NCBI GenBank assembly: GCA_041665005.1
Contig: JBAYJR010000006.1
Coordinates: forward strand, 13,309 to 77,308
Length of the DNA stretch: 64,000 bases
Direction of reading: 5' to 3'
Source of the DNA: Candidatus Buchananbacteria bacterium
GTDB lineage: Bacteria; Patescibacteriota; Patescibacteriia; 2-01-FULL-39-33; JBAYJR01
Part shown: positions 14,789 to 62,344 of the stretch, in pieces
Numbering within the stretch: the stretch's first letter is position 1
Layout of the letters: every line of letters begins with the position of its first letter
Program-made: the position numbers and the translations under genes
Notes under the pieces: generated by a model
Databases searched by the model: none
What the model was told of the DNA's origin: nothing
Seen by the model: the letters and a program-made list of their open reading frames with translations, nothing else

Positions 14789-14789
14789 T

Positions 14790-27329: not shown

Positions 27330-27345
27330 AAGGCAACGGCAGGCG

Positions 27346-27547: not shown

Positions 27548-27562
27548 TTTAAAAAGCGACTC

Positions 27563-30691: not shown

Positions 30692-30784
30692 TGGAGCGGG
30701 AGAAAGGAGTCGAACCTTCGGCTTTTTGGTCGTCTAATTGTTTAGACAGAGAACCAAATACTCTACCCACTGAGTTACCCCCGC
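30692..30784 (-). tRNA. tRNA-like gene (Gly-like acceptor/discriminator U73, encoded CCA) with a 24-nt anticodon-loop region containing a 17-nt hairpin insertion
   Basis: Reverse complement: gcggggg-ta-actc-agtgggta-gagt-a-tttgg-[ttctctgtctaaacaattagacga]-ccaaa-aagcc-gaagg-ttcgact-ccttt-ctcccgc-t-cca. All arms canonical except the loop. If an insert is spliced out, one reading gives loop ttCTCga. Confidence 0.6.
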
Positions 30785-30789
30785 TTTGT

Positions 30790-30864
30790 TGGAGCGTATA
30801 GGATTTGAACCTATTATCTCTTGCTTGAAAGGCAAGCGCTTATCCTGATTTCAGCTTACGCTCC
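30790..30864 (-). tRNA. tRNA-Glu (anticodon UUC)
   Basis: Reverse complement: ggagcgt-aa-gct-gaaatcaggata-agc-g-cttgc-ctTTCaa-gcaag-agata-atagg-ttcaaat-cctat-acgctcc-a. Confidence 0.8.
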
Positions 30865-30890
30865 ATCGGAAATAATAGCTTTAATAAATT

Positions 30891-30966
30891 TGGTGAAGCG
30901 TATAGGATTTGAACCTACAACCTCTTTCTTTGCAAGAAAGGGCTCAACCAGTTGAGCTTACGCTTC
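30891..30966 (-). tRNA. tRNA-Cys (anticodon GCA), CCA encoded
   Basis: Reverse complement: gaagcgt-aa-gctc-aactggtt-gagc-c-ctttc-ttGCAaa-gaaag-aggtt-gtagg-ttcaaat-cctat-acgcttc-a-cca. The discriminator is A (the E. coli Cys identity element U73 is not present). Confidence 0.75.
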
Positions 30967-45187: not shown

Positions 45188-46411
45188 ATGAAACAAATCT
45201 TTATTTTGGGGCAAAATCCCGCTTTGTCAACGGCCGAAATTATCACTTTGACCAAGCGTTTAGAACTGTTTGTGGGGCTAATTGAGGTTAGTCCAGAATT
45301 TTTATTGTTAGAATTACGCCAAGCATTGGATTTGCGACAGCTGGGTGGAACGGTTAAAACCGGTGTAGTTATTGATGAAGTAGCCGAAGCAAATTTAGAA
45401 TTGTTTGTTGGTCGGGCCTTGCAGGAATTACAAAAATTAGCCTTGCCTAAAGTTTGGTTTGGTTTTTCTTTTTATGGTCAAAACTCAAATTATTTTCAAG
45501 CTAAAGACGCCGGCATGATGATTAAGCGACGATTGGAGTTGGTAGACATTGCTTCGCGGTTTGTTGTCGCAAAAGGTAAACAACTTTCTTCGGTAATTGT
45601 CCAAAAAGAACACTTACTGGATAAGGGTCGAGATTTTTTGGTGGCCGCAATTGGTTCAAAGGTTTATTTTGGCTATACTACGGCGGTACAAGAATTTGAA
45701 GCTTATGGCGAACGTGATTTTGGCCGGCCGAGTCGTGATGCGGTTTCGGGAATGTTACCACCAAAACTAGCTAAAATGATGTTAAATTTGGCCGGGATTA
45801 AATCAAACACTAAAACTTTGGATCCTTTTTGTGGTTCTGGTACCGTTTTGCAGGAAGCCTTGTTGCTGGGAGTTAAAAAGGTTTACGGCACTGATTCCTC
45901 GGCCAAAGCGGTGGCCGACGCGCAACGGAATTTAAATTGGTTAAAAACTAAACAGCCAAATTTAAGTCAACAAGAAGTAAAAATCTTTCAAGCCGACGTA
46001 AAATTTATTGATAAGTATTTTAATGAATCCAAAGTTGATGTTATTGTAACCGAACCGTATTTAGGGCCAGCCTTAAAGATTAAAGATTTGATTAGTTTTA
46101 GAAAAGAACCGCTTAAATTGCAAATGCTGGTTAAAGAAATAGAGCAACTATACAGTTTAGCCCTGACGGTTTTTGTAGAAATTTTAAATCCCAAAGGACG
46201 GGTGGTTATGATTTGGCCAAATTGGAAAATCGGTAACAAAATTTATCGTTTGGAGCTAGTTAAAAAACTTAATCAGTTAGGTTTTAAAATTATTAATCCT
46301 TTAGCAGAAGTAAAATTTGGTTTTAAAGAAAAAACCGAGCGTCAGACTATTATTTATCAGCGCAATGAGCAGATTATTTTGCGCGAAGTGGTTATTTTAG
46401 AACGAGATTAA
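45188..46411 (+). CDS. Putative RNA (guanine-N2/adenine-N6 class) methyltransferase, UPF0020/Trm11-like
   Basis: 407 aa. SAM motif I 'LDPFCGSGTVLQEA', motif IV-like 'VIVTEPYLG'. Confidence 0.55.
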   Translation: MKQIFILGQNPALSTAEIITLTKRLELFVGLIEVSPEFLLLELRQALDLRQLGGTVKTGVVIDEVAEANLELFVGRALQELQKLALPKVWFGFSFYGQNSNYFQAKDAGMMIKRRLELVDIASRFVVAKGKQLSSVIVQKEHLLDKGRDFLVAAIGSKVYFGYTTAVQEFEAYGERDFGRPSRDAVSGMLPPKLAKMMLNLAGIKSNTKTLDPFCGSGTVLQEALLLGVKKVYGTDSSAKAVADAQRNLNWLKTKQPNLSQQEVKIFQADVKFIDKYFNESKVDVIVTEPYLGPALKIKDLISFRKEPLKLQMLVKEIEQLYSLALTVFVEILNPKGRVVMIWPNWKIGNKIYRLELVKKLNQLGFKIINPLAEVKFGFKEKTERQTIIYQRNEQIILREVVILERD

Positions 46412-46419
46412 TATTTTTT

Positions 46420-47493
46420 ATGTTTAAACTCAAGACCAGGACAATTTGGCTGATGTTGCCAATAATTATATTATTGGCTTTTTTAGATTATCAGGTTTTA
46501 ACGGGGCGAACGGTACAGACTATTGCTGGGTGGCAAAATAAATTGGTAGCCACGAAGGTTTTACCGTCTGAGTTGCCAAAAAGTATTTCCACGGTTATTT
46601 TTGGGGGCGATGTAATGTTGTCGCGAGTAGTTGGTCAACAAATGGCAAAACAGCAAGATTATACCTGGCCGTTTAAAAAAATTGCGGCAAGTTTGGCCGA
46701 GGCCGATTTAACGGTAGTTAATTTAGAATCTCCTTTGGCCAAAACCGGACCATATTTAGTTAAAACCGGTTCATTTGCTTTTAAGGCTGATCCTTTGGCG
46801 GTAGTCGGCTTAAAAACAGCGGGTATTGATGTGGTTAGTTTGGCGAATAATCACGCTTTAAATGCAGGGTTGGATAATTTATTATTTACCAAAGAATTTT
46901 TGCAACAACAGGGGATTAAGGCCTTGGGAGCGGGCGTGAATAAACAGCAGGCTAGTTTGCCGGTAATTATTAAAGTCAATGATTTGGTCTTGGGTTTTTT
47001 GGCTTATACCTATAATAGTGAACCATATTTAGCCGAGTTATCATCAAAGACGATGGCCAAAGAAGTTGAGCAGTTAAAAAAACAAGTTGATCAGGTGGTG
47101 GTGATTATGCATGCGGGTGAAGAATATAGTGCTCAGCCGACTTTGGAACAACAAAAGTTTGCCGACCGGGCGATTGCCGCGGGAGCGGCGCTAGTAGTGG
47201 GACATCATGCTCATTGGCCACAAAAAATTAAAGTGGTGTTAGACGAAAATGGTCAAACTAAGGGTTTAATAATTTATGGTTTAGGTAATTTGGTGTTTGA
47301 TCAAATGTGGTCACGCGAAACTCAGCGCGGGGTTTTGGCTAAAATTAGCTGGCAAGGCCAGACTTTAAAAAGTTTAGAAATAATTCCAGTGCGAATTTTA
47401 AATTATGGCCAGGCTAATTTAGCTACCAGCACTATGGATATTGATTGGGTGTTGCAAAGTTTAGGAATTTCAAAAACTAAATTAGAGTTTTAA
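46420..47493 (+). CDS. CapA/PgsA-family metallophosphatase-like protein
   Basis: 357 aa. 'FGGDVMLSR' and 'NLESPL', 'ANNHALN', 'HAGEEY', 'GHHAH' calcineurin-like blocks typical of CapA (PGA_cap). Confidence 0.7.
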   Translation: MFKLKTRTIWLMLPIIILLAFLDYQVLTGRTVQTIAGWQNKLVATKVLPSELPKSISTVIFGGDVMLSRVVGQQMAKQQDYTWPFKKIAASLAEADLTVVNLESPLAKTGPYLVKTGSFAFKADPLAVVGLKTAGIDVVSLANNHALNAGLDNLLFTKEFLQQQGIKALGAGVNKQQASLPVIIKVNDLVLGFLAYTYNSEPYLAELSSKTMAKEVEQLKKQVDQVVVIMHAGEEYSAQPTLEQQKFADRAIAAGAALVVGHHAHWPQKIKVVLDENGQTKGLIIYGLGNLVFDQMWSRETQRGVLAKISWQGQTLKSLEIIPVRILNYGQANLATSTMDIDWVLQSLGISKTKLEF

Positions 47494-47586
47494 TTTTGAT
47501 TAGGTATTAAAAAAATTTAGGGCGTAAAAAACTTTCCCAGTAGGAAAGTTTTTTGTTTCAATAGGTAATTGGCAAGCGATTGAAAA

Positions 47587-49038
47587 TTATAATTTGTCCA
47601 ATTCTAAGTATTCGGTAATTTTTATTTTTTTTACAAAATCTGGCATATGGCTAATCATAATCATGGCGCCCTGATATTCATTTAAAGCCGCGGCGATAAC
47701 TGGCAGGTGACGAAAATTAATATGGTTGGTGGGTTCATCTAAAATTAACAAGCCGGGCTTCATTAGAACTAGGCGAGCAAAAGCGAGTAGGCCTTTTTGT
47801 CCTTCGGATAAGTCGCCCACTTTATGATCCATTAGCTCGCCGGTGAGTAAAAAGCCGGCCGCTACGGCCCGCATTTCTTGTAGACTATAATTTTCTGATC
47901 GAGCACTATTTAAGGAATCAAAAACGGTTTGGGAAAAATCCAGGCTAGAAAAATCTTGGCTATAATAACCAACTACTACTTCGGGTAAAATTATCGCGCC
48001 TTCATTCTTTCCCGCCACCAGGGAACGCAAAAAAGTGCTTTTACCAATACCGTTGGGGCCAGAGATTAAAAGTTTTTGTCTTTTTCGCAAAATTAATTCT
48101 TTGGGTTTTAAAACTGGTTCATGGTTAACAATTATTTTTATAGAATTTATGGTGACGATAGCACCATTAATTTCTTGCATAGGAATATTAAAATCACGGA
48201 TAGTTTTGTCTTCCCGGCGAACTTCCACCATATTTTCTTCTGATTCTTCAATTTCTTCACGTAATTTTTTGGCCAATTTTCGCATCTTGCCGCCCTTGTT
48301 GGCAAAAAAGTTTACTTTTTCTTTACGATCTTGAATATTTTTTTGTAATTGAGCATTTTTCATTTGTTCACGTTCTACTCGCTTGGTAATTTCTTCCGTG
48401 ACACTATAATAATCGCCGACATAAATTTCGGTTTGCTTAGTAAAACTATCCAAATAAATAACGCCCTCGGTAAAACAATTTAAAAAATCCGCATCATGAG
48501 AAATAACAATAACGGTTTTGTTGTACATTACTAAAAATTCAATTAAATGGTCAATGCCGGCTTGATCCAGGTTGTTGGTTGGTTCGTCAAGTAATAAAAC
48601 GTCTGGGTCTTCAATTAAAGCAAAGGCCAGTAATAAACGGGCTTGCTGACCGCCAGATAATTCACCAACTTTGCGGTCTAAAGGAATTGATAAATTTATC
48701 GCTTCTAATACCTTACCAATTCTGCCAGGTAAATTATGAGGCACCGGCGAAAAAGCTTTAGCAAAATATTCTTTAACCGTTAAAGTTAAATCAGCGCGGG
48801 CAATCATTTGTCGGGCCGTTCCTACGCTTACTCCCTTATTGACCGAAACTACGCCTTGTTTGGGTTTTAATTCACCTAAAATCAAACCAAAAATTGTGCT
48901 TTTGCCAGCCCCATTTTGTCCCATTAAGGCTACTTTAGCGCCACGACGTAAACTAAAACAAGCACTACTTAAAATAGGCTTTTTTTCTTGATATTCAAAT
49001 TCCACATTATCAAAACGTAAAATTACTTCTTCGGCCAT
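47587..49038 (-). CDS. ABC-F family ATPase (two fused ABC domains, no TM domain)
   Basis: 483 aa. Walker A 'GQNGAGKST' and 'GPNGIGKST', signatures 'LSGGQQARL' and 'LSEGQKGLL', Walker B 'LLLDEPTNNLD' and 'LILDEPTNHIN'. Confidence 0.85.
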   Translation of the reverse strand: MAEEVILRFDNVEFEYQEKKPILSSACFSLRRGAKVALMGQNGAGKSTIFGLILGELKPKQGVVSVNKGVSVGTARQMIARADLTLTVKEYFAKAFSPVPHNLPGRIGKVLEAINLSIPLDRKVGELSGGQQARLLLAFALIEDPDVLLLDEPTNNLDQAGIDHLIEFLVMYNKTVIVISHDADFLNCFTEGVIYLDSFTKQTEIYVGDYYSVTEEITKRVEREQMKNAQLQKNIQDRKEKVNFFANKGGKMRKLAKKLREEIEESEENMVEVRREDKTIRDFNIPMQEINGAIVTINSIKIIVNHEPVLKPKELILRKRQKLLISGPNGIGKSTFLRSLVAGKNEGAIILPEVVVGYYSQDFSSLDFSQTVFDSLNSARSENYSLQEMRAVAAGFLLTGELMDHKVGDLSEGQKGLLAFARLVLMKPGLLILDEPTNHINFRHLPVIAAALNEYQGAMIMISHMPDFVKKIKITEYLELDKL

Positions 49039-49112
49039 AGATTTAAGGTAGTAAAATAGTAGTTAAACAGCTAACAGAGTTTAACAGATTATTGAGGAAA
49101 TGTCCAGCCGGA

Positions 49113-50357
49113 TTAATTTTGGTTGGTTATGGTTAAAGCGTTTTCACCGGCCAAGTGGCCAGTACTCCAGCAAGCTTGTAGATTGAAGCCACCAGTTGGT
49201 CCGGCCAAATCTAAGATTTCTCCGGCGAGTAGTAAATTGGGAATAATTTTTGAGCGCAGGGTTTTGGGGTCCACTTCGTTAAGAGCCACGCCGCCAGTGG
49301 TTAACATCGCCTTAGTATAATCTTCAACCTTGGTAACTTCCAGGCTAAAATTTTTAATTAAGTGGCTCAAGGTTTGGCGATTGGTTTTAGTAATTTGGTT
49401 AACTTCGGTTTCTGGTTTTATTTGGGCTTTAGTTAACAGGGTCAGCACTAATTTTGGGGTTAAAAGATTAGCTAAGACGTTTTTAATTTGTTTATTTTTA
49501 TTTTCCGAAAAAATAGTCCGTAAACGTAAATCTAGGCTGGCACTGGTTTCTTGAGGTAAAAAATCAAGATTTAAAGCAACGTGGGGCAAGGCGCGAGCGA
49601 CTTCACCGCTAGCATCAAAAATTGCCGGGCCACTAAGACCTTGGGCGGTAAAAATAGCTTCCCCGTGCTGACTGGCAATAACTTTATTATTTTTTAGCCA
49701 AGTAAAATTGACCTCGGTTAAACTCGTACCTTCTAATTGTTTGACAATTTTATCTTTAACGATAATTGGGGTTAGAGCGGGATAAGTTTTAGTAATGGTA
49801 TGACCCAGCTTAGCCAACCAAGTGTAGCCATCACCAGTAGAACCGGTTATCGGATAGGCTAAACCTCCGGTAGCAATTAAATAGTTATTAGCCGAAAATT
49901 CTTGGCCATCAGTTAAGACAATCTTGGTAATTAAATTTTTTTGTTTAATAATTTTTTTTACAGTTGCTCGAGTTATAACTTTTACCGAAGACTTCCGCAA
50001 ATAATCAAGCATAACCCTGAGAACATCGTTAGCTTTATTACTAACGGGAAAAACGCGGTTGGCTGTTTCTGTTTTTAGGGGCACGCCCCGGCTAGTAAAA
50101 AATTTAATAGTGTCAGAGGAATCAAATTTGGTTAAAGCCGAAAAAAGAAATTTACCGTTATTGCCAAAGGCTTTAACCAATGCTCGGACGTTGACGGCAT
50201 TAGTTAAATTGCAACGTTGGTTGCCAGTCAGTAGGAGTTTTAGGCCAGGTTGGTTGTTTTTTTCCAATAATAAAACTCGTGCGCCTAGTTCGCCGGCTCG
50301 GCCCGCCGCCATTAGGCCGGCTGGTCCGCCACCAATAACAATTAAATCGTAGTTCAT
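49113..50357 (-). CDS. HI0933-like (BaiN/aminoacetone-oxidase family) NAD(P)/FAD-dependent oxidoreductase
   Basis: 414 aa. 'YDLIVIGGGPAGLMAAGRA...GARVLLLEK' dinucleotide-binding motif, C-terminal 'GGFNLQ'. Confidence 0.75.
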   Translation of the reverse strand: MNYDLIVIGGGPAGLMAAGRAGELGARVLLLEKNNQPGLKLLLTGNQRCNLTNAVNVRALVKAFGNNGKFLFSALTKFDSSDTIKFFTSRGVPLKTETANRVFPVSNKANDVLRVMLDYLRKSSVKVITRATVKKIIKQKNLITKIVLTDGQEFSANNYLIATGGLAYPITGSTGDGYTWLAKLGHTITKTYPALTPIIVKDKIVKQLEGTSLTEVNFTWLKNNKVIASQHGEAIFTAQGLSGPAIFDASGEVARALPHVALNLDFLPQETSASLDLRLRTIFSENKNKQIKNVLANLLTPKLVLTLLTKAQIKPETEVNQITKTNRQTLSHLIKNFSLEVTKVEDYTKAMLTTGGVALNEVDPKTLRSKIIPNLLLAGEILDLAGPTGGFNLQACWSTGHLAGENALTITNQN

Positions 50358-50416
50358 GGTAATTATTTACCGTTTAAGTATAACAGCCATTTATAAAAAA
50401 TAAAAATATACACTTT

Positions 50417-50555
50417 TTGTCATTCCGGCCTACGAAAACCGCCTGCCTACCGGTAGGCAGGGAATCCAGATTAATTAAGGTTGTCACTATTACTCTCGAA
50501 GTGATTAAATCTCAGTAGAATGCCCTCCTTAATATCCTTGTCCTTTTGTAACCAA
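50417..50555 (+). repeat. About 115-nt repeat copy 2 (with an expanded first hairpin)
   Basis: 'ttgtcattcc-ggcctacgaaaaccgcctgcctaccggtaggcag-ggaatccagattaattaaggttgtcactattactctcgaagtgattaaatctcagtagaatgccctccttaatatccttgtccttttgtaaccaa'. Opposite orientation to the adjacent gene, unlike copy 1. Confidence 0.7.
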
Positions 50556-50701
50556 AAGGACCCACCGCCATGCGGGGCAGGCAAAAGTTTTGGGGGCCCA
50601 AATTTCCGCCCAAGGCGGACCAGCCTAGGGCTGGCGCTCTGCTATCTTATAAATTACTTGTTTTTATTTTTTAATCCTTGACGCTCAATTGTCACTTAGC
50701 T

Positions 50702-50748
50702 TGCCCCGCGTAGCGGGGACCCGGGGTGGTTCTGCCAGGATTTTTAAT
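50702..50748 (+). repeat. GC-rich hairpin repeat, copy 2
   Basis: 'tgtcacttagcttgccccgcgtagcggggacccggggtggttctgcc' matches 20669-20722. Confidence 0.65.
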
Positions 50749-50767
50749 AAATGTTTTTAAACAAAAA

Positions 50768-50806
50768 AATTAGGCGAGAATCACTTGGTGTGACTCTCGC
50801 CTAAAA
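50768..50806 (-). terminator. Intrinsic terminator of the 291-aa gene (minus strand)
   Basis: 'aggcgagaatcac-ttggtgt-gactctcgcct', followed on the minus strand by ttttttt. Confidence 0.55.
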
Positions 50807-50812
50807 GTTGGG

Positions 50813-51688
50813 TTAGCGAGTTAGTTGTGCTAACTCCTGTTTGGTGTGTTTCCGGCTTGTTCTGGCCGGAATTTTTACACCACGCCCTTTAGCGTTGGTG
50901 AGGGGGATTTTTTTCCCTTTTGCTTTCGCTTTGGGAGTGGCGACAATAATTTCTTCCGGATCAGGTTCGTCGGTCGTTACCATGGCAACTTCGTCAGTTG
51001 CCAAAGTGGTGACCGTAATCATCGGTTCCGGTGCCGGTTTTTCGATTGGGGCCGGGGCATTGTACCCCGGGATTTCGATATGGAAAGTCTCGTGACCTTC
51101 CAACTCTTTTTGCCAGTTTGCTTTGGAAAGCATTTCCTGGACTTTGGCGACGGCTTTTTTTGCCGCGACCTTGGTTGCCGGATCGGGGATCCGGTCAATT
51201 TCGTTCCAGTTTCCAACCAACACTTCGCCGGATTGTTGGTGGAGATACATTGGCTTTATTTCAACCATTTTTTCGCCGGTGCTGCGAACAGCACTGGCGG
51301 TTACCAGAGAGTAATCTCTGGCAAACGGTGTCGCCGATGCGACGGTGAATTGGAGGACACCGTGTTCAAAACGTCCTTCCGGTTGAGTTTTGATGCAGTA
51401 ATGATACTGCACCCTGTCCACTTGATTTTTAATATTTTTTATTTCTGTGATGACCCAGGAAAGGTCATCGGGGTTGTCACCTTTGACGGTGACAAATAAG
51501 TTTCCGCTGGCTTTGTCAAGCCAGGAGAACATTTGCGGAAGTCGGCGGTTTGCCTCTAACTGAAAAAAGTTTTCCAGATTTCCCTCTGGTTTGAGGGAAA
51601 TCGCCACTGCCGCATGGCAGTGGATAAAAGTCATCCAGGCTTCATAGCCTGGTTGACCTTTCTTTTTGGGATATACACGGGTAAACAT
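50813..51688 (-). CDS. Hypothetical 291-aa protein encoded in a GC-rich (about 50%) island, with a basic Lys/Arg-rich C-terminus
   Basis: Shine-Dalgarno 'aaggagggtaaact' before ATG 51688. No recognisable catalytic motif. Tail 'KAKAKGKKIPLTNAKGRGVKIPARTSRK'. Several overlapping spurious ORFs in other frames reflect the high GC. Confidence 0.6.
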   Translation of the reverse strand: MFTRVYPKKKGQPGYEAWMTFIHCHAAVAISLKPEGNLENFFQLEANRRLPQMFSWLDKASGNLFVTVKGDNPDDLSWVITEIKNIKNQVDRVQYHYCIKTQPEGRFEHGVLQFTVASATPFARDYSLVTASAVRSTGEKMVEIKPMYLHQQSGEVLVGNWNEIDRIPDPATKVAAKKAVAKVQEMLSKANWQKELEGHETFHIEIPGYNAPAPIEKPAPEPMITVTTLATDEVAMVTTDEPDPEEIIVATPKAKAKGKKIPLTNAKGRGVKIPARTSRKHTKQELAQLTR

Positions 51689-51844
51689 AGTTTACCCTCC
51701 TTTAAAAAAATTCTTGACCTCGTTAAACTAATTGTTTATTGAGGTGATCTACCAAGCGGTAGACTCTTGTTGTAAGGAACTATACATAATAGCATATTAA
51801 TAATATTTTGTCAAGGCATTTTGGGTTATTTTTGTTTAAATAAT

Positions 51845-51868
51845 TAAAAAAGTGGCTATAATTAGCCA
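51845..51868. terminator. Hairpin 'aagtggctataattagccactt', a probable terminator downstream of paralog C
   Basis: 10-bp stem flanked by A/T runs. Confidence 0.45.
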
Positions 51869-51884
51869 CTTTTGTTGTTTAACT

Positions 51885-51957
51885 TTGTTATTCCGTACTT
51901 GTTTGACCCATCATCGGCGGTGAATGCGCCTGCCTGCTGTTAGGCAAGTGCGGAATG
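51885..51957 (+). repeat. Divergent copy of the 'ttgt(c/t)attcc...ggaat' hairpin element with a long loop containing cgcctgcct...aggcaag
   Basis: 'ttgttattccgtacttg...gcgcctgcctgctgttaggcaagtgcggaatg'. Resembles the expanded hairpin at 50417-50465. Confidence 0.4.
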
Positions 51958-51968
51958 ATAAAGAAAAT

Positions 51969-53018
51969 TTAAAGAATACTCACCGCAAAACGAACAGAAT
52001 CATCAGAGCTGGGATCGCCCGGAGTGCTCTGATACAAATCAACCGTCTCACTGTCACGGCTGAAATCGGCGTCTGGCACACTGCTAGATTTAAAATAGCT
52101 ATTAAGTAAACAACAAGCCTTACCCGAGCCTTGCCAGTCATCAATCACTTGATCGGTTTGGGTTAGATGAGTTAGGGCATAAACTAGCCAGGATTCTAGG
52201 GTTAAACCTTGCTCACCTTTATATTGAGGGTCAGTTTGGAGTTGTTTAAGATAGTCATTGGGTGATTTATTAGCTTCTGGTTGTTTACGACCAGCTAAAA
52301 CTTTGCCCTTTCCTTCACCTGGAAGATCAGGCAAGTCTTCAAGTAACAGGACTTGCCAGGCTTGGGTGGCTAGGAGTTGTTTTTTAGTTTTACCTTGATG
52401 AGTAGTTTTAGAGTATTCTTGAGGGAAATATACTAAATATCCTTTAGCTTCAGCCTTGGCGCATCCAAACCAATCATTGATAGGTTCTTCCCTAAGTCTT
52501 AAAGGTTTATCTTGAGTGTCCAAGAGTTTACCTTGTTGATGGTGTTTGGTTAAGGAGTTGCCATAGGCCTTAATTAGAGAATCTAGAGGCAAGCCAAAGG
52601 GGACAATGATTAGTTTAACAAAGCCTTGATTAATTTTGGTTTTCAAGAACTCTTTGTTTTTTAACATTTTATTCTCAATCTGTTCTAGGGTGGGTATCGG
52701 GTATTCTTGGTGGTTAATTGCCTCAATACCCAATTCGCCAGTGGCGAGGGTTTTAAGGAGGTTGGTTTTACGGAGGAGGTCTACTTGGGCTTCATATTGG
52801 GCTTTAAGATTTTCTTTAGTTAGTTCGGGGGTTTCTAGCCAGAGTTCGTTTTGGAGTTCTTGGAGAGTTCGTTCTAATCTAAATTTAACAACCCTAATAA
52901 ACATCAGATCGTCTGACTTACCTGTTTGAGGCAAACTGGCTAATTCTTGATTGAACGTTTGTTTCAGTTGTTTGAGGGACTCTAATTCACTGGTGAGTCT
53001 TTGGCAGGATTGGGACAT
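51969..53018 (-). CDS. Paralog family member C (inverted, about 27 kb from A/B)
   Basis: 349 aa. About 70-75% aa identity to A/B through the body ('LWLETPELT.ENLKAQYEAQVDLLRK.NLLKTLATGELGIEAI', 'KTKINQGFVKLI.VPFG', 'HQGKTK', 'TQAWQVLLLEDLPDL', 'ESWLVY'). Divergent tail ending ...VRFAVSIL. Confidence 0.75.
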   Translation of the reverse strand: MSQSCQRLTSELESLKQLKQTFNQELASLPQTGKSDDLMFIRVVKFRLERTLQELQNELWLETPELTKENLKAQYEAQVDLLRKTNLLKTLATGELGIEAINHQEYPIPTLEQIENKMLKNKEFLKTKINQGFVKLIIVPFGLPLDSLIKAYGNSLTKHHQQGKLLDTQDKPLRLREEPINDWFGCAKAEAKGYLVYFPQEYSKTTHQGKTKKQLLATQAWQVLLLEDLPDLPGEGKGKVLAGRKQPEANKSPNDYLKQLQTDPQYKGEQGLTLESWLVYALTHLTQTDQVIDDWQGSGKACCLLNSYFKSSSVPDADFSRDSETVDLYQSTPGDPSSDDSVRFAVSIL

Positions 53019-53296
53019 AAAAATAATTTAAAGTTTGACTGATTTTTGACAGCTAAACTTGTGTCTATCTTAACAAAAACCCTTACTTTTTACAAATAAG
53101 TTAGACCAGAATAAGCCGGTAAGCAAGTCAGCATATCAGCAAGTCAGAAAACTTGGGGTTACAAGTGGGCCAGATTCTGAATTCACCACCAATGGCGTGA
53201 CCGGCAAACTTAGGATGGCGGGGATCCCTAAGTGCTTCTGTTAGAGTTTTGTTAAGTAACTTAAAATAAGTAAAAATTATTTTTTAGAAAACAAAA

Positions 53297-53330
53297 AAGC
53301 CGATTGTGGTATTACGCTTTCGGCTTGTTT
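53297..53330 (-). terminator. Intrinsic terminator (minus strand)
   Basis: 'aagccg-attgtggtattacgcttt-cggctt' preceded by aaaaaa (T-run on the minus strand). Confidence 0.45.
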
Positions 53331-53621
53331 TGGTTTGAGTTTCTTGTTGGTCAAAATAATGGCAGAATAATAGAAATCCTTTTTATAAATATCAGCACGG
53401 CAATAACATCAAGGGTCAGGCTAATAAAAATAACAATACACCAAAATAATTTCCAAACAGCTTTAGTTGCAAAGGTTAGCGCTATTAGACTAATTACCAG
53501 TAAAATAAAACTACCCACGAGGTACGCTATTATAATCAGATACCCTCCAGTACGTGTTTATGTTGATAATATAATCTTTTTTTAATTTTGTCAATAACTA
53601 CTTTTTTGTATTTTATGTTAT

Positions 53622-54905
53622 TTATTTTTCTATAATTTTTTCAATATTATAAGCACCTAATTTGTTGCCGTCGATAAAACCTTGCATGGCCGCTTCGGCT
53701 AAAAAGCCGTTTTGGTGCCAATCTAACAGCCATTCATTGGTATAGCGCGGATCTTCTTGTTCTAAACCCGCCCCCATTTTGCGAATATATTGGCGGTTGA
53801 ATTTTTCTTGCGAGCCAATTGGCGGGGCAATAATAATTGGTAGGCCTAAGGCGGAATAAAAACTTAATTCACTCGGTTTGGTCCATAAAACATCAGTTTG
53901 ATGCAGTAGACGATTAAATTCCGCCAAATATTTTAATTTATTATGGTTATAAATTATTTTGACATAGCGGCTAAGTTTGAGTTTAGAAAGTTCTTGTTTA
54001 AAATATAAATAAATTTCTTCACGTGAGCCGGCAATCAAAATAAAATAAACTTTTTTTTGTAAAATTTCTTGGCGCAAACTTTTGACAATAGTAATACCTA
54101 ATTCCTGTTGCGCTCCGGCCCCACCGACGGCAAAAGCAATTGTTAGGGGATGATGATCGGTGTCGGGCAGCCGGGAAATACCCAGCCAAGTGGCGATATT
54201 TTTTTTGTATTCATTAAAATAAATACGGTTAGGGTCTAGATGGGCCAGTCTTTCTTTGAGGTCACGTTTAAGTCGGGGTAAAGTTGGTCCACCCAAATTT
54301 TCTTTAGGCAAAGGAAAGCCGGTTAAAAAAATATTTTCTGCTTTAACCGCATAAAGTTTAAGTCGTTCCACTACTCGAGTGGTTGGCGCAAAATATTTTA
54401 TCTTGCTAGAGCGACTGTCCAGGGGAGCCCAGGCGCGGGAGATGTCTGCGTCACAAACAATTAAGTAAATTTCCCCGGGGTAACCAAAAATTTCAGCCAT
54501 GTAGGCAGTAGTAAAAAAGGGAGTAATTAAAGGCAGGGGATTTTGGGCTAATTTGTTGATTAAATGTTTACCCCAGCTTTTTTGCTTGATCATTTTGTAG
54601 GTCATTTTTAATTGCAGGGTGGGTTTGGATAAATCACGGCGGGGGTAAAAATTTTCAATACTTTGAAAATAGTCAAACAAGTCAAAACTAAGCTCGCCAA
54701 CCAAGGGGACTTTTTTAAAACGAGAGATTGCTTCGTAACCCGAAGTACTTTGCTCCCAAATTTTACGGTCAGCGGCGGGCATACCAGGGTAGTTGTTGGC
54801 ATCAATAATTTCGCCGACCGCTAAGTCTTTTAGCGGGTAAGTGGCGCGTTGGTGGCCATAACCCATATCAACTGTCACCACCCAGGCTTTGGGTTTTTTA
54901 TTCAT
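53622..54905 (-). CDS. Putative GT-B glycosyltransferase (MGDG-synthase/UgtP-like)
   Basis: 427 aa. N-terminal 'WVVTVDMGYGHQRATYPL' resembles the 'G-x-GH' start of MGDG synthase-family enzymes. C-terminal 'FAVGGAGAQQ'. Confidence 0.45.
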   Translation of the reverse strand: MNKKPKAWVVTVDMGYGHQRATYPLKDLAVGEIIDANNYPGMPAADRKIWEQSTSGYEAISRFKKVPLVGELSFDLFDYFQSIENFYPRRDLSKPTLQLKMTYKMIKQKSWGKHLINKLAQNPLPLITPFFTTAYMAEIFGYPGEIYLIVCDADISRAWAPLDSRSSKIKYFAPTTRVVERLKLYAVKAENIFLTGFPLPKENLGGPTLPRLKRDLKERLAHLDPNRIYFNEYKKNIATWLGISRLPDTDHHPLTIAFAVGGAGAQQELGITIVKSLRQEILQKKVYFILIAGSREEIYLYFKQELSKLKLSRYVKIIYNHNKLKYLAEFNRLLHQTDVLWTKPSELSFYSALGLPIIIAPPIGSQEKFNRQYIRKMGAGLEQEDPRYTNEWLLDWHQNGFLAEAAMQGFIDGNKLGAYNIEKIIEK

Positions 54906-55028
54906 AAAGATTTTTAGAAATATTCTGTTTTAATTATATACTATTTATTTTTATTAGTCATTGTGGCAGTCATTAAAAAAAAGAAGCCTAGAAGGCCTCT
55001 GATTATTCTGCTAGTAGAAAATAAATGA

Positions 55029-56093
55029 TTAAACGCTAAATCTGAAGTTACAAATATCACCATCTTGAACTACATAATCTTTGCCTTCTAAACGCATCAA
55101 GCCTAACTCCTTAGCCTTCAGCTCACTGCCGGCTTTAATAAAATCAGCATAGGCAATTACCTCGGCGCGGATAAAGCCTCGTTCAAAATCAGTATGAATG
55201 GCGCCGGCCGCTTGAGGCGCTTTACTGCCACGTTTAATGGTCCAAGCCCTGGTTTCGTCAGTGCCAGTAGTTAAAAAAGTGATTAAATCTAGGTTTTGAT
55301 AAGCCACTTTAATAAGTTGGTCTAGGCCGGATTGAGCTAAGCCCAGTTCTTGCAAATAATTTTTGGCTTCGGCCGGTTCAAGCTCTGATAATTCGGCTTC
55401 AATTTTGGCGGAAATGTATAAATCATTGGGTCGGTGAGTGGCGAAATTTTTAATATCTTCTTCAGCAATATTGTAAACGTAAAATTGTGGTTTAAAAGTC
55501 AAAAGTTGTAAATCTTTTAAAGCCAATTTTTCTTCCTCAGTTAAATCTAAGGTTTGCGCCAATAAACCGGCTTCCAGATGTTGTTTTAATTTTTCTAACA
55601 ACTGATAGTAGGCTAACAATTTGGCATCTTTATTAGCTTGAGCGGTTTTTATGCCACCCTCACAACGCTTAGTTACCGTAGCCAGGTCGGCTAAAATTAA
55701 TTCTAGGTTAATAATTTCTTTGTCGGCTTCAGGGTCAACCCGATCCTGGACATGGATAATATTTTTGTCAGAAAAATTACGCAAAACTTGCACAATAGCA
55801 TCAACTTCTCTAATGTGAGATAAAAATTTGTTACCCAAGCCTTCGCCCAAAGAAGCACCCTTAACTAAACCAGCAATATCTACAAATTCAATGGTAGTGT
55901 AAATAGTTTTGGCGGAATTATTTAGTTTAGTTAAAACTTCCAAACGTTCATCAGGCACCGCGACTACCCCCACGTTAGGATCAATGGTGCAAAAAGGGTA
56001 ATTAGCAATATCTACCTGTTTTTTGGTCAGGGCTTTGAATAGAGTAGATTTGCCAACATTGGGTAAACCGACAATTCCTACGGCTAAGCTCAT
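55029..56093 (-). CDS. ychF: Ribosome-binding ATPase YchF
   Basis: 354 aa. G1 'GIVGLPNVGKSTLF', 'DIAGLV', C-terminal TGS domain. Confidence 0.9.
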   Translation of the reverse strand: MSLAVGIVGLPNVGKSTLFKALTKKQVDIANYPFCTIDPNVGVVAVPDERLEVLTKLNNSAKTIYTTIEFVDIAGLVKGASLGEGLGNKFLSHIREVDAIVQVLRNFSDKNIIHVQDRVDPEADKEIINLELILADLATVTKRCEGGIKTAQANKDAKLLAYYQLLEKLKQHLEAGLLAQTLDLTEEEKLALKDLQLLTFKPQFYVYNIAEEDIKNFATHRPNDLYISAKIEAELSELEPAEAKNYLQELGLAQSGLDQLIKVAYQNLDLITFLTTGTDETRAWTIKRGSKAPQAAGAIHTDFERGFIRAEVIAYADFIKAGSELKAKELGLMRLEGKDYVVQDGDICNFRFSV

Positions 56094-56961: not shown

Positions 56962-57882
56962 TTGATTATGAAAAAAAGGATATTTTTGATGGTAACTCTA
57001 GCCGTAATGATTTTTTTGCCAACTAAAGTTTGGGGGATTACTCTGGCTCCGGCCACTTTGGAGTTAAAAGTAGCGGCTGGTCAAAGCCAGGAGTTTAAAA
57101 TTAAGTTGTTTAATGAAGAGGATAAAACCGTATTTTTACTAGCGAGTTTAAAAAAATTTGTTAGCCAGGGTACAGAGGGGTCGGCTAAAATTTTAGTCAC
57201 CACGGCGCAAGATGAATATTTAAATTGGTTTAATTTGCCGGGCCGCTATACTAAGTTAGCGCCTGGTGAAATGCAAGAAATTACTTTAAAAATTAGTATT
57301 CCGGCCAAAGCCGCACCAGCCGAATATTTTCCGGTGCTGGCCTGGCAAACTTTGACCGGAACAAATTCCGGGGATAATTTAGCAGTTTCGTCTGAGGTTG
57401 GCACCTTAATTTTTTTACAAATAACAGGCCCTAAGGAAGAAAAGTTGAGTCTACAAAATTTTTCTTTACCTACTAAGCAACAAATACTCTGGTCTTGGCC
57501 TAAAAAGTTTTTAGTGCAAGTTCAAAATGAAGGCAATATTCATCTAGTACCACAAGGGAATATTAAACTGGCTGGTTATTGGCAGAAAACCCCATTAATT
57601 TTAGCGGTTAATGAAGGTCAAGGAAAAATTTTGCCCAACAGTCAACGAGTCTATGAGGTTTTTTTGCCTCAGCGTAGTAGTTCAATGCTGGCTAGCTTAA
57701 AAAAGTTTTTAGTAATTGGTAAATATCAAGCCACTTTAAATTTAACTTATGGCGAAACGAATAAAAGTTTGACTCAGATGATTAATTTTTGGGTAATTTC
57801 TTGGCCAGCGGTCAGCTTGTTTGGGGTGTTACTAATTATTTTAGGTTATAATCTAATTAAATTTAATGCCAAAAGACAATAA
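56962..57882 (+). CDS. Secreted protein with C-terminal membrane anchor
   Basis: Signal peptide, beta-rich body, C-terminal TM 'ISWPAVSLFGVLLIILGYNLI' + KR. Confidence 0.5.
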   Translation: MIMKKRIFLMVTLAVMIFLPTKVWGITLAPATLELKVAAGQSQEFKIKLFNEEDKTVFLLASLKKFVSQGTEGSAKILVTTAQDEYLNWFNLPGRYTKLAPGEMQEITLKISIPAKAAPAEYFPVLAWQTLTGTNSGDNLAVSSEVGTLIFLQITGPKEEKLSLQNFSLPTKQQILWSWPKKFLVQVQNEGNIHLVPQGNIKLAGYWQKTPLILAVNEGQGKILPNSQRVYEVFLPQRSSSMLASLKKFLVIGKYQATLNLTYGETNKSLTQMINFWVISWPAVSLFGVLLIILGYNLIKFNAKRQ

Positions 57883-60800
57883 AATATTTTTTAGTTTAGG
57901 TTTGGTAGTAGCCGGTTTATTGGTGGCTAATTTTTTTGGTGCGGCTAGTTATTTGATTGCCGCTAATGCTAATGTCACAATTTCTGGCACGATTGAAGGT
58001 GTAACCCCGCCGCCAGATTGTTTTTTGGCCGGTACTAAAATTTTAATGACTGACGGTAGTCAAAAAGATATTGAGCAGATTAAAGTCGGGGAAAAAGTCT
58101 TGAGTAAAAATTTAACTTACGGACAATTAACTAGTAATACAGTTGAACAAACTTACACTCACCAGGATATTCGGCGCATTATTGTCATAAACCAAAAATT
58201 ATTCGTGACTGGTTGGCACCCTTTATATTTAAATGGTAGTTGGCAATTGGCCCGACTGGCAAATTTGGGTGATGAATTACAAACTGTTGATGGTGCGGTA
58301 GAAAAAATTAATTCGTTGCAAGAAATTACGGGTCCCTTTACGGTTTATAATTTAGCAGTGGCCCAAGATAATAATTATTTTGCGGAAAATATTTTAGTCC
58401 ATAATAAAGGGGGCGGCTGTACTCCAGTGGCTATTACTTGTGGCGAATGTGTTTATAGCAATAACCAGTGGACTAAAACTTGTTCAGATGGTTGTAGTAG
58501 TAACTCATTTTCTTGTAGTGCTCCAGCTCCGGTGGCAGCTTTTGTGGTGCAAGATCCGGCGACGGGTGTTGAAATTTTTCAAGGTGATGGCCCTTTAGTT
58601 TTAAATTATTTAGATCGTTCTACCAATAATCCTACGCAATGGAAATGGGAATTTTTAGATGGTAGTCGTAGCAATCATTTAATTTTTACTAGTAATCAGC
58701 AAAATTTACTCGCTTATGTTTTGTATAATACTTCGACTGCCCAAAAAACTTATACGGTTAAGTTAACAGTTAATAGTAGTTCTTGGGCGACTACACAAGT
58801 TAAGGTTTTTCCCGATGCTACCACGGTTTTTAATATAAGTAGTGACAAATTAAATAATCAAGTGGAACAATTTGATCCGGCAGATCCTAGCGACACTAAT
58901 GCGCTTGTGCAATTTAAAATGAATTATGTTTCTGGTGGGTTGCCACAGACTTATTTGTGGGATTTCGGTGATGGTCGAACTAGTACCGAAGGTTCAATTG
59001 TTACCCACTATTATTCTAATCTGGGTAGCTACTGCGTTACTTTAAAAACTTGTAATGATAAGGGCTGTACCTTTAATACTAACAAGCAATGTAGTGGCAA
59101 TAATACCGGTATTAAAATGTCGGTGGTTAAAACCATTAATTGTTCAGCCTTTTTTGATGCTACAGTAGTCGATCCTGATCCGTTGACTTTAACTTTTAAC
59201 GCTAAAAAGTCCGTGCAATTTAATAATGGTTCAGCCGGCAAAGGAATTTTAAGTTATTTATGGACTTTTACTAATCGGCAAACTGGGCAAGTTTTTACGC
59301 GCACTGACAAAGAGCCATTAATTGAGTTTGATAATCAAACAGCTGTGGCTCATAATTATAACGTTTCTTTGGTTACTACTTGCTCTGGTTATACAAAAAA
59401 TAGTACTCAAGCTCGGACGAATTATATTAATGTTAAGCCGCGGCCACCGGAAGCAGATTTTAATTGTTATATTAATGATCAAAATTCTATAACTTGTAGT
59501 GGCCTTTCGCCGTTAGTGGTGAATTTAAGAGATGCAACAACCGAAAGCACACCTAGTTCTTGGGCTTGGTCTTTTGTAGTTAATCGTACCGGACAACGAG
59601 CACCTGTTTGTGGAAGTAAAACAGTAGCTAATCCTAGCTGTACTTTTACCGGTAATCGCGGTGATATTTGGAATGCAACTTTATTAGTAAATAATGCCGC
59701 TGGTTTGCCCAGCAGTAAAATGAAGCAAATTAAAATTGGTAATCCCGAAGCACCAATACCTTGGTTTACTGTGGACAAGGCCATAGCTTATAGTGGCGAA
59801 ACTATTACTTTTACTGATAAGTCGCAAAACATTACTAACGTCCCAATTACGGGTTGGGATTGGAATTTCGATGGCTTTAATCATTCTACACAAGTTAGTG
59901 GCACTTTAACGCATGTTTACGTCGTAGATAAGCAAACCACTTTTACTCCCACCCTAACCTTAACTGATAAATTTGGTCAGAAAAATACTTTTACTATCCC
60001 CGTTGTTATTTATCCTTCAGCTCCGCCGGTGGCGCAGTTTAGTTGTCAGCCAACTAGTCCGCCGGCTTGGCCGGCCCCTAAGGCAGTTAATTTAATTGAT
60101 CAATCTACTAATAAGCCAAATTATTGGCAATGGACCATTACTTTACCGGATGGCCAAAAGGCAATTTATTACGAACAGAATCCCACGGTTACTTTAGCGC
60201 CGACGGCCGAACATTCTTATGAAGTAGCCTTAAAAGTTTGCAATAAAATTTGTTCAGATTTTGTTAATCCTCATTGTAATTGTACCGAAAGAAGCCAAGC
60301 GGGTTGTATTACAGTGGCCCCTTTGCCAGTTGTGGCCTTAAGGTTGACGCCAAATTTAATTAATCAGGGTCAGAGTGCTAGTTTGGCTTGGCAAAGTTTA
60401 AATGCCCGGGAGATTAATTTAGATCAAGGTTTAGGACAAGTTTCAACTAACGGTAGTAATTCTAATGGTAGTGTGCAAGTTAGTCCGACCAAAACCACTA
60501 CTTACACGGCTACGGCTACTAATGAAGTGGGCAGTAGTCAGGCCATGGCCACTTTAAGTGTTTCTTCTTCGGCTATGGTGACTGTTAGTATTACTGCTAC
60601 TCCAACTTTAATTAAAGCCGGGCAAACTTCCTTGTTAACTTGGAATTCACAAAATGCCCAAACTTTAAATATTGAAGGGATCGGTCCGGTTAGTGCTTCG
60701 GGTAGTGCAGAAGTTTCGCCTACCAAGACTACCACTTACACCATAACCGGCCAAGGAGAAAATGGTTTGTCCGCTAGTGCTAGTATTACGGTGGCGGTAG

Positions 60801-62344
60801 AACCAGTTTATCCACCGATTACTCCCGACCCACCAGAGTTGCCGCCAACTATTCCACCTTTTATTGAAAATTTATTACCGCCAATTGTTAATGAAGTAAT
60901 TAAAGATATTATTAACAATCCGGTGGTGGTAATGGTGCGAAAGTTTATCAGTCAGCCGGAAGTGAAACGAGTAACCAGACAGACTGTCGCGCCAATTATT
61001 GTTGCCACTTCGGCGATAGCCGTTAGTACTTCTTTTGGTTTGTTGGATTTATTATCGTTGTTGCGTTTTATTTTTACCGAACCATTTTATTTATTATTTC
61101 GTCGTCGTCGGCAAGGTTGGGGGACGGTCTACAACACTTTTACTAAACAGCCAATTGATTTGGCGGTAGTGCGTTTGTATAGCACTAAAGATAATAAATT
61201 AGTGACCAGTCGAGTGACCAATACGCGAGGGCAGTATTTAATTTTAATAGAGCCAGGAGAATATTATTTGGAAGTAACTAAACAGGATTTTGTTTTTCCG
61301 TCTAATGTTTTGTTTGGCAAAACACAAGATGAAAAATTTACTGATCTTTATACTGGCGGTAAAATTATCATCACGGCCGAACAGCCAAATATTGCCTTAA
61401 ATATTCCGCTGGATTCGCATTTGCCAGAATTATCCGACAATCAAATTATTAGACATTATCATCGACAGGCTTTACGTTTAGTATTACTATCTTTAGGGCC
61501 AATTGCCGCTGTAGTTTCTTTTGTGATTGCGCCTAGTTATTTAATGTTTAGTTTAATTTTAGTGCATTTATTCTTTTATTGGTTATTCCGCAAGCTATCT
61601 TATCGCGGGGTGCCCAAGAGTTGGGGTTCGGTGTTTGATAAGCTAAAATCCTCACCGGTGGCAACAGCGGTAACGAGAATTTATGAACCAACTTATCATC
61701 GTTTGTTAGAAGTTCAGGTAACGGATCGCCAAGGACGCTATGGCTTTTTAGCGGATAATAATATTTATTATGTTACGGCGCAAAAGGCCGGCTACAAAAC
61801 GGCGCAGTCAACCTTAGTAGATTTGCGACAAAAGGATTCTTCGGTAGTTAAGTTGGATTTACCATTAGAATTAGAAAGTGGTGGGGCTAATTTGGAAATT
61901 GAAAAACAAAAATCTATTTTGGGTTTAGCTACGGCCAAAGAATTAAACCGAGTAGAAGAAAAGGTTCACGCGGTTAAGGGGCAAGTGGATCGAGTACAGT
62001 TACGGGTTGGTAAAACGGAATTAGGTTTGGCCGGAGCCAAAAAACAATTAACCAAACAACATAAAATTTTGGAAGAGAGATTAGCGGAGCAAGAAAAAAG
62101 TATTAAAGCGGTAGAAACTAAGCCAGTTACCAAAACTATTGAAGAAAAAGTTGTGGTGACAAAGCCCGAAGCCTTACCAGAAGTAATTTTGTTGCCACCA
62201 GCCAGCCAGCCAGTTGAGTTACCAAAAAATTTGGTAGAAAATGAACCAGCAACCGAGGAAAATAATTTGTCTGGGGATAAGTCAGTCGGGGAGGAGTCAT
62301 CAGATGACCCGACCAAACAACCGCCGGAGGGTTTAGTTGGCTAA
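57866..62344 (+). CDS. Giant (1492-aa) surface protein: signal peptide, Hint (bacterial intein-like) domain, PKD/Ig-like repeats, Pro-rich linker, TM segments, two carboxypeptidase-regulatory-like domains, coiled-coil
   Basis: Hint blocks 'CFLAGTKILMTDGS', 'TGWHPL', terminal 'ILVHN' followed by Lys. Two tandem ~90-aa repeats ('...SVQVSPTKTTTYTATATNEVG' and '...AEVSPTKTTTYTITGQGENG'). 'EPVYPPITPDPPELPPTIPP'. 'VVRLYSTKDNKLVTSRVTNTRGQYLILIEPGEYYLEV'. Confidence 0.8.
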   Translation: MPKDNKIFFSLGLVVAGLLVANFFGAASYLIAANANVTISGTIEGVTPPPDCFLAGTKILMTDGSQKDIEQIKVGEKVLSKNLTYGQLTSNTVEQTYTHQDIRRIIVINQKLFVTGWHPLYLNGSWQLARLANLGDELQTVDGAVEKINSLQEITGPFTVYNLAVAQDNNYFAENILVHNKGGGCTPVAITCGECVYSNNQWTKTCSDGCSSNSFSCSAPAPVAAFVVQDPATGVEIFQGDGPLVLNYLDRSTNNPTQWKWEFLDGSRSNHLIFTSNQQNLLAYVLYNTSTAQKTYTVKLTVNSSSWATTQVKVFPDATTVFNISSDKLNNQVEQFDPADPSDTNALVQFKMNYVSGGLPQTYLWDFGDGRTSTEGSIVTHYYSNLGSYCVTLKTCNDKGCTFNTNKQCSGNNTGIKMSVVKTINCSAFFDATVVDPDPLTLTFNAKKSVQFNNGSAGKGILSYLWTFTNRQTGQVFTRTDKEPLIEFDNQTAVAHNYNVSLVTTCSGYTKNSTQARTNYINVKPRPPEADFNCYINDQNSITCSGLSPLVVNLRDATTESTPSSWAWSFVVNRTGQRAPVCGSKTVANPSCTFTGNRGDIWNATLLVNNAAGLPSSKMKQIKIGNPEAPIPWFTVDKAIAYSGETITFTDKSQNITNVPITGWDWNFDGFNHSTQVSGTLTHVYVVDKQTTFTPTLTLTDKFGQKNTFTIPVVIYPSAPPVAQFSCQPTSPPAWPAPKAVNLIDQSTNKPNYWQWTITLPDGQKAIYYEQNPTVTLAPTAEHSYEVALKVCNKICSDFVNPHCNCTERSQAGCITVAPLPVVALRLTPNLINQGQSASLAWQSLNAREINLDQGLGQVSTNGSNSNGSVQVSPTKTTTYTATATNEVGSSQAMATLSVSSSAMVTVSITATPTLIKAGQTSLLTWNSQNAQTLNIEGIGPVSASGSAEVSPTKTTTYTITGQGENGLSASASITVAVEPVYPPITPDPPELPPTIPPFIENLLPPIVNEVIKDIINNPVVVMVRKFISQPEVKRVTRQTVAPIIVATSAIAVSTSFGLLDLLSLLRFIFTEPFYLLFRRRRQGWGTVYNTFTKQPIDLAVVRLYSTKDNKLVTSRVTNTRGQYLILIEPGEYYLEVTKQDFVFPSNVLFGKTQDEKFTDLYTGGKIIITAEQPNIALNIPLDSHLPELSDNQIIRHYHRQALRLVLLSLGPIAAVVSFVIAPSYLMFSLILVHLFFYWLFRKLSYRGVPKSWGSVFDKLKSSPVATAVTRIYEPTYHRLLEVQVTDRQGRYGFLADNNIYYVTAQKAGYKTAQSTLVDLRQKDSSVVKLDLPLELESGGANLEIEKQKSILGLATAKELNRVEEKVHAVKGQVDRVQLRVGKTELGLAGAKKQLTKQHKILEERLAEQEKSIKAVETKPVTKTIEEKVVVTKPEALPEVILLPPASQPVELPKNLVENEPATEENNLSGDKSVGEESSDDPTKQPPEGLVG

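Follow-up and report, generated by a model that had tools for sequence, protein, structure and literature searches.

Perfect inverted repeats that lie inside functional coding sequence and far exceed expectation are described in the mitochondria of Nematomorpha, where protein function and a strict secondary structure are maintained together (PMC6649704). These coding palindromes are the closest described phenomenon to the subject of this report, a gene for a 291-residue orphan protein (NCBI WCW02_03095; 50813..51688, minus strand) whose coding sequence is saturated with short hairpins. The gene lies in a 64-kb stretch of DNA, referred to here in its entirety as the window, from a bacterium of the Candidate Phyla Radiation, 'Candidatus Buchananbacteria bacterium' (NCBI). 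Both features of the nematomorph case recur in it, with differences of scale and setting: the nematomorph repeats are few, long (up to 284 bp) and found in conserved respiratory genes of animal mitochondria, whereas here about 25 short hairpins tile one bacterial orphan gene.

Several other systems also invite comparison. Short template switches turn imperfect inverted repeats into perfect ones and can alter coding sequence (PMC8604942, PMC5453318); such mutations could create the hairpins of the orphan gene, but they are described as events scattered genome-wide, and here a single gene is saturated. Like a phage moron (as defined in PMC2920897), the orphan is a single gene with its own predicted promoter and terminator and a GC content unlike that of its neighbours. 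Unlike a moron, it sits among core chromosomal genes and has no phage copy, with no match among 50,697 phage records or in IMG/VR. The locus resembles repetitive extragenic palindromic (REP) sequences, bacterial interspersed mosaic elements and the REP-associated tyrosine transposases (RAYTs) in that short GC-rich extragenic palindromes are stacked and flank a single-copy gene (PMC2817692, PMC3733652), and differs in its low copy number, the lack of a Y1 transposase signature and an HUH-like motif that is not conserved. Finally, one Buchananbacteria genome carries TasR, the units of TIGR (tandem interspaced guide RNA) arrays being non-coding, with 8-12-nt spacers and box C/D motifs, and adjoining a Nop-domain gene (PMC12045711); the orphan gene shares none of these traits.

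The hairpins were missed by an earlier, sequence-only reading of the window, which had singled out the region for its G+C content. About 25 consecutive local helices with stems of 5-10 bp and loops of 3-8 nt cover the coding sequence, and only the first ~27 nt carry no local hairpin. The minimum free energy of the RNA is -343.4 kcal/mol, compared with -237.2 ± 8.6 kcal/mol for synonymous-codon shuffles (z -12.3; -13.8 when the test is repeated), and dinucleotide shuffles give a z score of -11.5. The pairing is local, with a span of 40 nt or less for 87% of pairs. When a perfect hairpin is defined as a stem of at least 7 bp closed by a loop of 3-8 nt, the orphan gene contains 12 (13.7 per kb), compared with 0.40 ± 0.68 per kb (maximum 2.6) in the other 42 genes and 0.96 ± 0.98 (maximum 5) in 300 synonymous shuffles. 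Fold z scores for 16 control genes of the same organism range from +0.85 to -3.08, including those of ribosomal proteins S1 (-0.67), S21 (-1.19) and S6 (-3.08). Codons pair in phase with reverse-complement codons in 13 of 24 hairpins, and the stability gained over shuffles amounts to -105 kcal/mol on the sense strand and -77 kcal/mol on the antisense strand. The homologue described below, which has a GC-richer coding sequence and a G+C content at third codon positions (GC3) of 0.455, likewise carries excess structure, though to a much smaller degree (z -4.2, one perfect hairpin), and a few hairpins keep their position in it, such as one encoding VQYHYCI.

A known structured RNA family was considered and set aside: only tRNAs reach the Rfam gathering score in the window, and nothing credible appears at E values up to 10 in 50300-52000. 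A hairpin-tiled coding sequence is very unusual for a bacterial protein gene; no described bacterial example matching it was found among the papers retrieved, and we know of no REP system that fills a gene's own coding sequence with hairpins.

Judged from sequence comparison, 50813-51688 is a genuine protein-coding gene. A HMMER search of 1.84 billion representative proteins returns, besides the query, a single relative (P0002; 266 residues, 44% identity over residues 1-198, E 9.4e-30), which is encoded on a 1.16-kb contig, locus L002. In a codon alignment with this homologue, identity is 0.59, 0.65 and 0.36 at codon positions 1, 2 and 3, a pattern that indicates a real gene under purifying selection; at 36% identity in third positions, synonymous sites are saturated. 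The four overlapping open reading frames (ORFs) that the sequence-only reading had attributed to a paucity of stop codons are present. The longest, 50846-51499 (plus strand, 217 residues), is the exact reverse-complement frame of the orphan gene, and its lack of stops follows from the scarcity of TTA, CTA and TCA codons in that gene. It was rejected as a gene in its own right, since the same frame in the homologue would hold seven stops by codon-table count. An assembly artefact is ruled out by an independent contig (L001) from the Logan assembly of run SRR6484324, which is 100% identical over 52242-50700, covers the whole gene and stops inside a hairpin repeat at 50699-50735.

The protein, which the sequence-only reading had called unrecognised, remains so after homology and profile searches, with one relative and no known family. 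Word-indexed searches with the sequence and with a two-member profile give no further relatives, so that the family stands at two members in about 15 billion proteins. For both members, and also for separate domains, Pfam, PHROGs, NCBIfam and PADLOC contain nothing above noise. A PDB profile search has no match at E values up to 10, tblastn finds none in phage and plasmid collections, and profile scans of GTDB species genomes, IMG/VR and JGI metagenomes reveal no relative. AlphaFold models are unusable, with a predicted local distance difference test score (pLDDT) of 43 at full length and 46 for the N-terminal domain with a two-sequence alignment, and fold searches from them return noise only. 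The chain consists of a folded N-terminal domain of ~200 residues, an acidic Pro/Thr-rich linker (net charge -9) and the basic C-terminal tail already pointed out in the earlier reading (residues 251-291, net charge +12). It has no hydrophobic segment. The relative retains the charge pattern (linker -3, tail +8) and not the sequence. The encoded protein is soluble and limited to a very narrow lineage. Nucleic-acid binding is plausible given this charge pattern and the conserved leader hairpin described below.

The G+C-rich patch that first drew attention is real, though its contrast is smaller than the ~50% against ~36% originally given: 50400-51700 contains 47.5% G+C and the 64-kb window 38.3%. 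This stretch ranks top among all 1300-nt windows of the 64 kb (mean 0.383, standard deviation 0.022, z ~4), and G+C peaks at 0.52 in 300-nt windows. Within the patch, the orphan gene has 48.6% G+C and a GC3 of 0.512. The 43 ORFs of the window have a GC3 of 0.337 ± 0.038 (the orphan gene standing at z 6.6 relative to the other 42), and the range is 0.26-0.39 for 16 genes from a different contig of the organism (L083). Paired bases of the orphan gene are 59% G+C and unpaired bases 33.4%, while the corresponding values in native genes are 45-48% and 31-34%. The G+C excess thus sits in hairpin stems and unpaired G+C is native-like, so the excess is structural and not a uniform donor-like composition. 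The most fitting description of the patch is a single gene laden with structure, together with a spacer full of GC-rich palindromes, and not DNA of uniformly foreign composition.

Codon usage deviates as well, the orphan gene having the largest distance among same-strand genes by a scaled chi-square. This comparison must be made within the gene's own strand because minus-strand genes are all C-rich at third positions. An initial signal of C over T at third positions proved to be confounded by this strand skew, and translational selection for C-ending codons was dropped as an explanation. Relative to same-strand genes, T at third positions falls to 0.197 from 0.332 and T at 4-fold sites to 0.176 from 0.375 (z -5.1), with the depletion offset by gains shared among C, G and A. 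Third-position T in unpaired sequence is 0.14 compared with ~0.3, and in both family members A makes up 51% and U 16% of the unpaired stretches. The third-position bias of the orphan gene is not seen in the genes for ribosomal proteins, RpoB/C or EF-P. As a separate observation on composition, the whole window shows a strong third-position strand asymmetry, with G exceeding C in plus-strand genes and C exceeding G in minus-strand genes, and cumulative GC skew climbs over most of the profiled stretch 46000-55900.

With its predicted signals, 50760-51814 (minus strand) is a self-contained single-gene expression cassette. A near-consensus, sigma-70 promoter-like site at 51786..51814 (minus strand) reads TTGACA-17 nt-TATTAT, with TG before the -10 element and 11 of 12 consensus positions matched; the equivalent site at L002 is TTGACA-17-TATACT, and that locus also has AGGAGG and a homologous terminator. 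The predicted 5' leader, from an inferred start site, extends over 51689..51779 (minus strand). Folding of both leaders gives two adjacent hairpins, then an A/U-rich spacer and then the Shine-Dalgarno site. In the window, hairpin 1 lies at 51747-51764 and hairpin 2 at 51717-51745 (both minus strand); the second is conserved, with 9 invariant pairs in a ~30-nt block kept in the window and at L002. The strong Shine-Dalgarno site and the gene's own terminator were both anticipated by the earlier reading. The former (AAAGGAGGG, 51695-51703) is located 6 nt before the ATG. The latter is a predicted intrinsic terminator at 50760..50804 (minus strand) with a 15-bp stem, a 5-nt loop and a T-run, stem and T-run falling at 50770-50804; a blastn comparison of L002 with the window aligns this stretch alone (77% over 48 nt). 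Leader hairpin 2 and the terminator can be aligned even though synonymous sites are saturated, which argues that these non-coding elements are constrained. Upstream, a two-way terminator hairpin with an 11-bp stem (51848..51873) insulates the cassette from a gene for a 349-residue protein. A consensus promoter (TTGACA...TATACT) also occurs elsewhere in the genome, at L083 5768-6010 between a 94-residue ORF and pth, where it precedes a structured, non-coding sequence of ~200 nt with a terminator; the arrangement may be a small RNA gene.

The spacer between the orphan gene and the neighbouring flavoprotein gene contains the three features that the earlier reading had listed, a long repeat, a hairpin repeat and a GC-rich tract, although it measures 455 nt (50358-50812) and not 400, and its long repeat 100 nt and not 115. 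A palindromic element at 50416..50470 (plus strand) has an ATTCCG...GGAAT bracket around a nested CCTGCCT-ACCGG-TAGGCAGG hairpin. It is followed by the 100-nt dispersed repeat (50461..50560, plus strand), which folds as a long imperfect hairpin and has a second, 85% identical copy at 14694-14793, upstream of a copper-chaperone-like gene. Next come a GC-rich tract with three or four short GC hairpins (50561..50645, plus strand), part of which (50565-50585) is a diverged copy of the hairpin repeat in inverted orientation, and then the 37-nt GC-rich hairpin repeat itself (50699..50735, plus strand; CCCCGC-GTA-GCGGGG plus flank), with a 97% identical copy at 20684-20720. On the far side of the cassette, just past the stop of the 349-residue gene, a second palindromic element (51888..51964, plus strand) has an ATTCCG...CGGAAT bracket and a CGCCTGCCT-N5-TAGGCA core. 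Bracket and core match those of the left element, with the core in the same orientation; the outer 12-mers of the two elements are inverted and the hairpin cores direct.

Copies of the spacer elements occur at 14.7, 20.7 and 27.5 kb of the window, at 2-3 copies per 89 kb examined. Two further contigs of the genome, 25 kb together (L083, 21 kb; L084, 4.2 kb), yielded none, and neither did 84 other loci, leaving aside L001, which represents this same region. Metagenomes searched by exact pattern yielded no hairpin repeat, and viral contigs searched likewise yielded no 100-nt repeat. Since copies of the flanking repeats lie elsewhere in the same genome, the spacer repeats are native, low-copy palindromic elements. 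Their arrangement suggests that the cassette sits within or between related palindromic elements; no target-site duplication was found around it.

Two other sites involving these elements merit description. At 14665-14793, the 100-nt repeat's second copy runs exactly up to the ATG of a gene for a 68-residue heavy-metal-associated (CopZ-like) protein, itself upstream of a P-type ATPase, and the repeat may supply or disturb the leader of that operon. The intergenic region 27207-27562 (50% GC) contains a tRNA-Arg(CCG) bracketed by the inverted repeat ccgcctgcc...ggcaggcgg, then a sequence resembling a tRNA's 3' half (gttcaaatcgcaccgggg...cca) and after it, at 27474-27492, a third, degenerate copy of the CCTGCC hairpin.

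The explanation favoured here, tentatively and with somewhat less than even confidence, is that the locus is an insulated and probably strongly expressed cassette in which a highly folded coding sequence is maintained so that the messenger is long-lived. Under this proposal, the hairpins would be retained because they make the mRNA compact and durable. Given the general properties of bacterial RNases, stems of 5-10 bp would be too short for a double-strand-specific enzyme, and the A-rich, U-poor single-stranded linkers would be poor substrates for single-strand-specific, AU-preferring endonucleases. The hairpin-free first ~27 nt would leave space for ribosome loading. Individual hairpins would probably be born by short template-switch (inverted-copy) mutations and then turn over, so that overall foldedness persists and not each hairpin. 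The conserved leader hairpin is probably regulatory, possibly through feedback by the protein via its basic tail.

A number of observations weigh against this explanation. The homologue's z score of -4.2 is barely beyond that of the most structured control (-3.1), and hairpin positions are mostly unconserved, with 38% of pairs formable in the homologue compared with 33% by chance. Pairing in the palindromes is almost entirely Watson-Crick, with folding on either strand (antisense z -10.2), and mismatches at stem ends comprise 2 G·T and 4 A·C against an expected ratio of 0.5, which leaves RNA- and DNA-level selection unseparated. Two family members are too few for a statistical test of selection, and the promoter, the start site and the stability of the mRNA are all predictions. 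The genes for ribosomal proteins in this genome are not structured in this way, and strong expression is thus insufficient by itself to account for the hairpin tiling. A broader proposal, which we consider doubtful, is that the gene represents an undescribed bacterial kind, a 'coding hairpin array' whose coding sequence is selected as a continuous series of short hairpins, either as an extremely nuclease-resistant messenger or as a small mobile cassette in its single-stranded DNA form, on which an unrecognised hairpin-specific nuclease of its own would act.

The sequence-only reading had proposed either a horizontally acquired cargo gene or a conserved nucleic-acid-binding protein under different compositional constraints, and the results come nearer to the compositional constraints than to the cargo. 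Recent acquisition from a GC-richer relative or a mobile element, possibly with a single-stranded DNA stage, would make both composition and hairpins those of the donor, and would fit the GC3 outlier (z 6.6), the codon-usage distance, the presence of a predicted promoter and terminator, the related palindromic elements on both sides and the extreme rarity of the family. The gene is also absent from the closest genomes found, none of them a true sister genome, which have ~46% GC and a GC3 of 0.39-0.59. As in a genomic island, composition and codon usage are unusual, though the excess is confined to hairpin stems, with unpaired G+C at a native-like 0.334. There are no mobility genes or tRNA site: no integrase, transposase or phage gene occurs among the annotated ORFs of the 64-kb window, and the nearest tRNA lies more than 19 kb from the orphan gene, which has no tRNA attachment site at its border. 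Phage, plasmid and viral collections contain no match, the flanking repeats are native and the homologue has the same bias, so we regard acquisition as somewhat unlikely. A neutral origin, in which frequent template switching between short inverted repeats perfected the palindromes, with a strongly transcribed gene that meets the replication fork head-on as a likely cause and hairpins devoid of function, draws on their near-perfect Watson-Crick character and folding on both strands. The G-rich strand, presumably the leading one, is the opposite of that carrying the gene. Compared with the homologue, some palindromes called for amino-acid changes (such as P13/A17) or for insertions of 3 residues (such as LSW and PEG), and template switching has been documented to change coding sequence (PMC8604942). 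Nothing similar is nonetheless seen in other genes that are head-on and probably well expressed (S1, S6, SSB, EF-P and YchF), and 12 perfect hairpins where 1 is expected, in one gene only, are hard to obtain without selection. Moreover, the homologue is over-structured in another organism, and stem residues are no more diverged than the rest (identity 0.47 versus 0.37). A purely mutational by-product is accordingly judged unlikely.

A role at the DNA level appears less probable still. The protein could be a divergent HUH or RAYT-like single-stranded DNA nuclease with the palindromes as REP-like substrates, the whole forming a domesticated or non-autonomous IS200/IS605-type unit. RAYT genes are likewise flanked by REPs, and their fast evolution could explain missing sequence matches (PMC2817692); the related, recurring palindromic elements around the orphan gene fit this pattern, and the protein contains FIHCHAAV, with a His-hydrophobic-His arrangement, at residues 21-28 and YHYCIK at residues 95-100. 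The second His, however, is Lys in the only homologue (HCK versus HCH), although Y95 and Y97 are conserved. Neither member matches Y1_Tnp (PF01797) or another HUH family at E values up to 10, the PDB profile search is empty, and the AlphaFold models (pLDDT 43-46) cannot be used for fold assignment. Repeat copy number is low, and the hairpin cores flank the gene directly and not inverted, all of which makes a nuclease of this type highly improbable. Most improbable is that the region is not a protein gene but a palindromic or guide-RNA-like array (a REP cluster or a TIGR- or CRISPR-like array) with a chance ORF. Long ORFs on both strands and the density of hairpins would suit such an array, and some Buchananbacteria carry TIGR-Tas, with some TIGR arrays consisting of tandem stem-loops (PMC12045711). 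Against it stand the codon-position identities and the protein match at E 9.4e-30, together with the Shine-Dalgarno site and ATG, which are in place. A TIGR array in particular was rejected, as the region is coding, no tandem or shared repeat unit was found in it, loops of 3-8 nt leave no room for spacers and the neighbouring gene has no Nop-domain match.

If the tiling is selected, the orphan gene would be a natural example of a coding sequence bent toward nucleic-acid structure without ceasing to encode a conserved protein. It would also provide a test case for the control of mRNA life and protein yield by coding-region structure in bacteria, within a host group, the Candidate Phyla Radiation, whose gene regulation is almost unstudied. 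Should the DNA-level reading be true, the locus would point to a new family of hairpin-processing proteins. For genome scans, the locus carries the caution that a local anomaly in G+C content or GC3, a classic sign of horizontal transfer, can stem from a constraint on secondary structure.

The window is otherwise ordinary chromosome. Neighbouring genes encode RpoB/RpoC, FtsK, RecA, EF-P, SSB, ribosomal proteins S6 and S1, an ABC-F protein, the HI0933-type flavoprotein and YchF. In the closest genomes found, the flanking flavoprotein is 55-65% identical and gene order differs. The closest of these relatives (L005 7044-9753; flavoprotein 65% identical, 46% GC genome) has the ABC-F gene upstream of the flavoprotein gene, whereas in the window it is downstream, which indicates that the neighbourhood has been rearranged between lineages.

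The 349-residue gene adjoining the cassette (51969-53018, minus strand) belongs to a greatly expanded family with no Pfam domain, of which at least 20 paralogues with 43-71% identity occur in this one small genome. They include 24326-25399 and 25419-26537 (both plus strand) in the window, L083 10001-11059 and L084 2232-3257; relatives elsewhere are mostly on short metagenome contigs, with a few on contigs of 11-82 kb. The plus-strand copies have the C-rich third positions typical of minus-strand genes, which suggests recent inversion or copying. Beyond the 349-residue gene, 53019-53621 is a 603-nt region (32.8% GC) that is long for a compact genome and has no convincing gene, containing only a 93-residue ORF with a TTG start. 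In a tRNA cluster at 30692-30966 (minus strand), Rfam places three tRNAs (30695-30784, 30790-30864 and 30894-30966) and ARAGORN two, the first of which it calls an unusually long (93-nt) tRNA-Glu. Finally, 57866-62344 (plus strand) encodes a 1492-residue protein whose N-terminal Hint/intein-like domain precedes PKD and carboxypeptidase-regulatory-like domains, an order that is unusual for a large surface protein.

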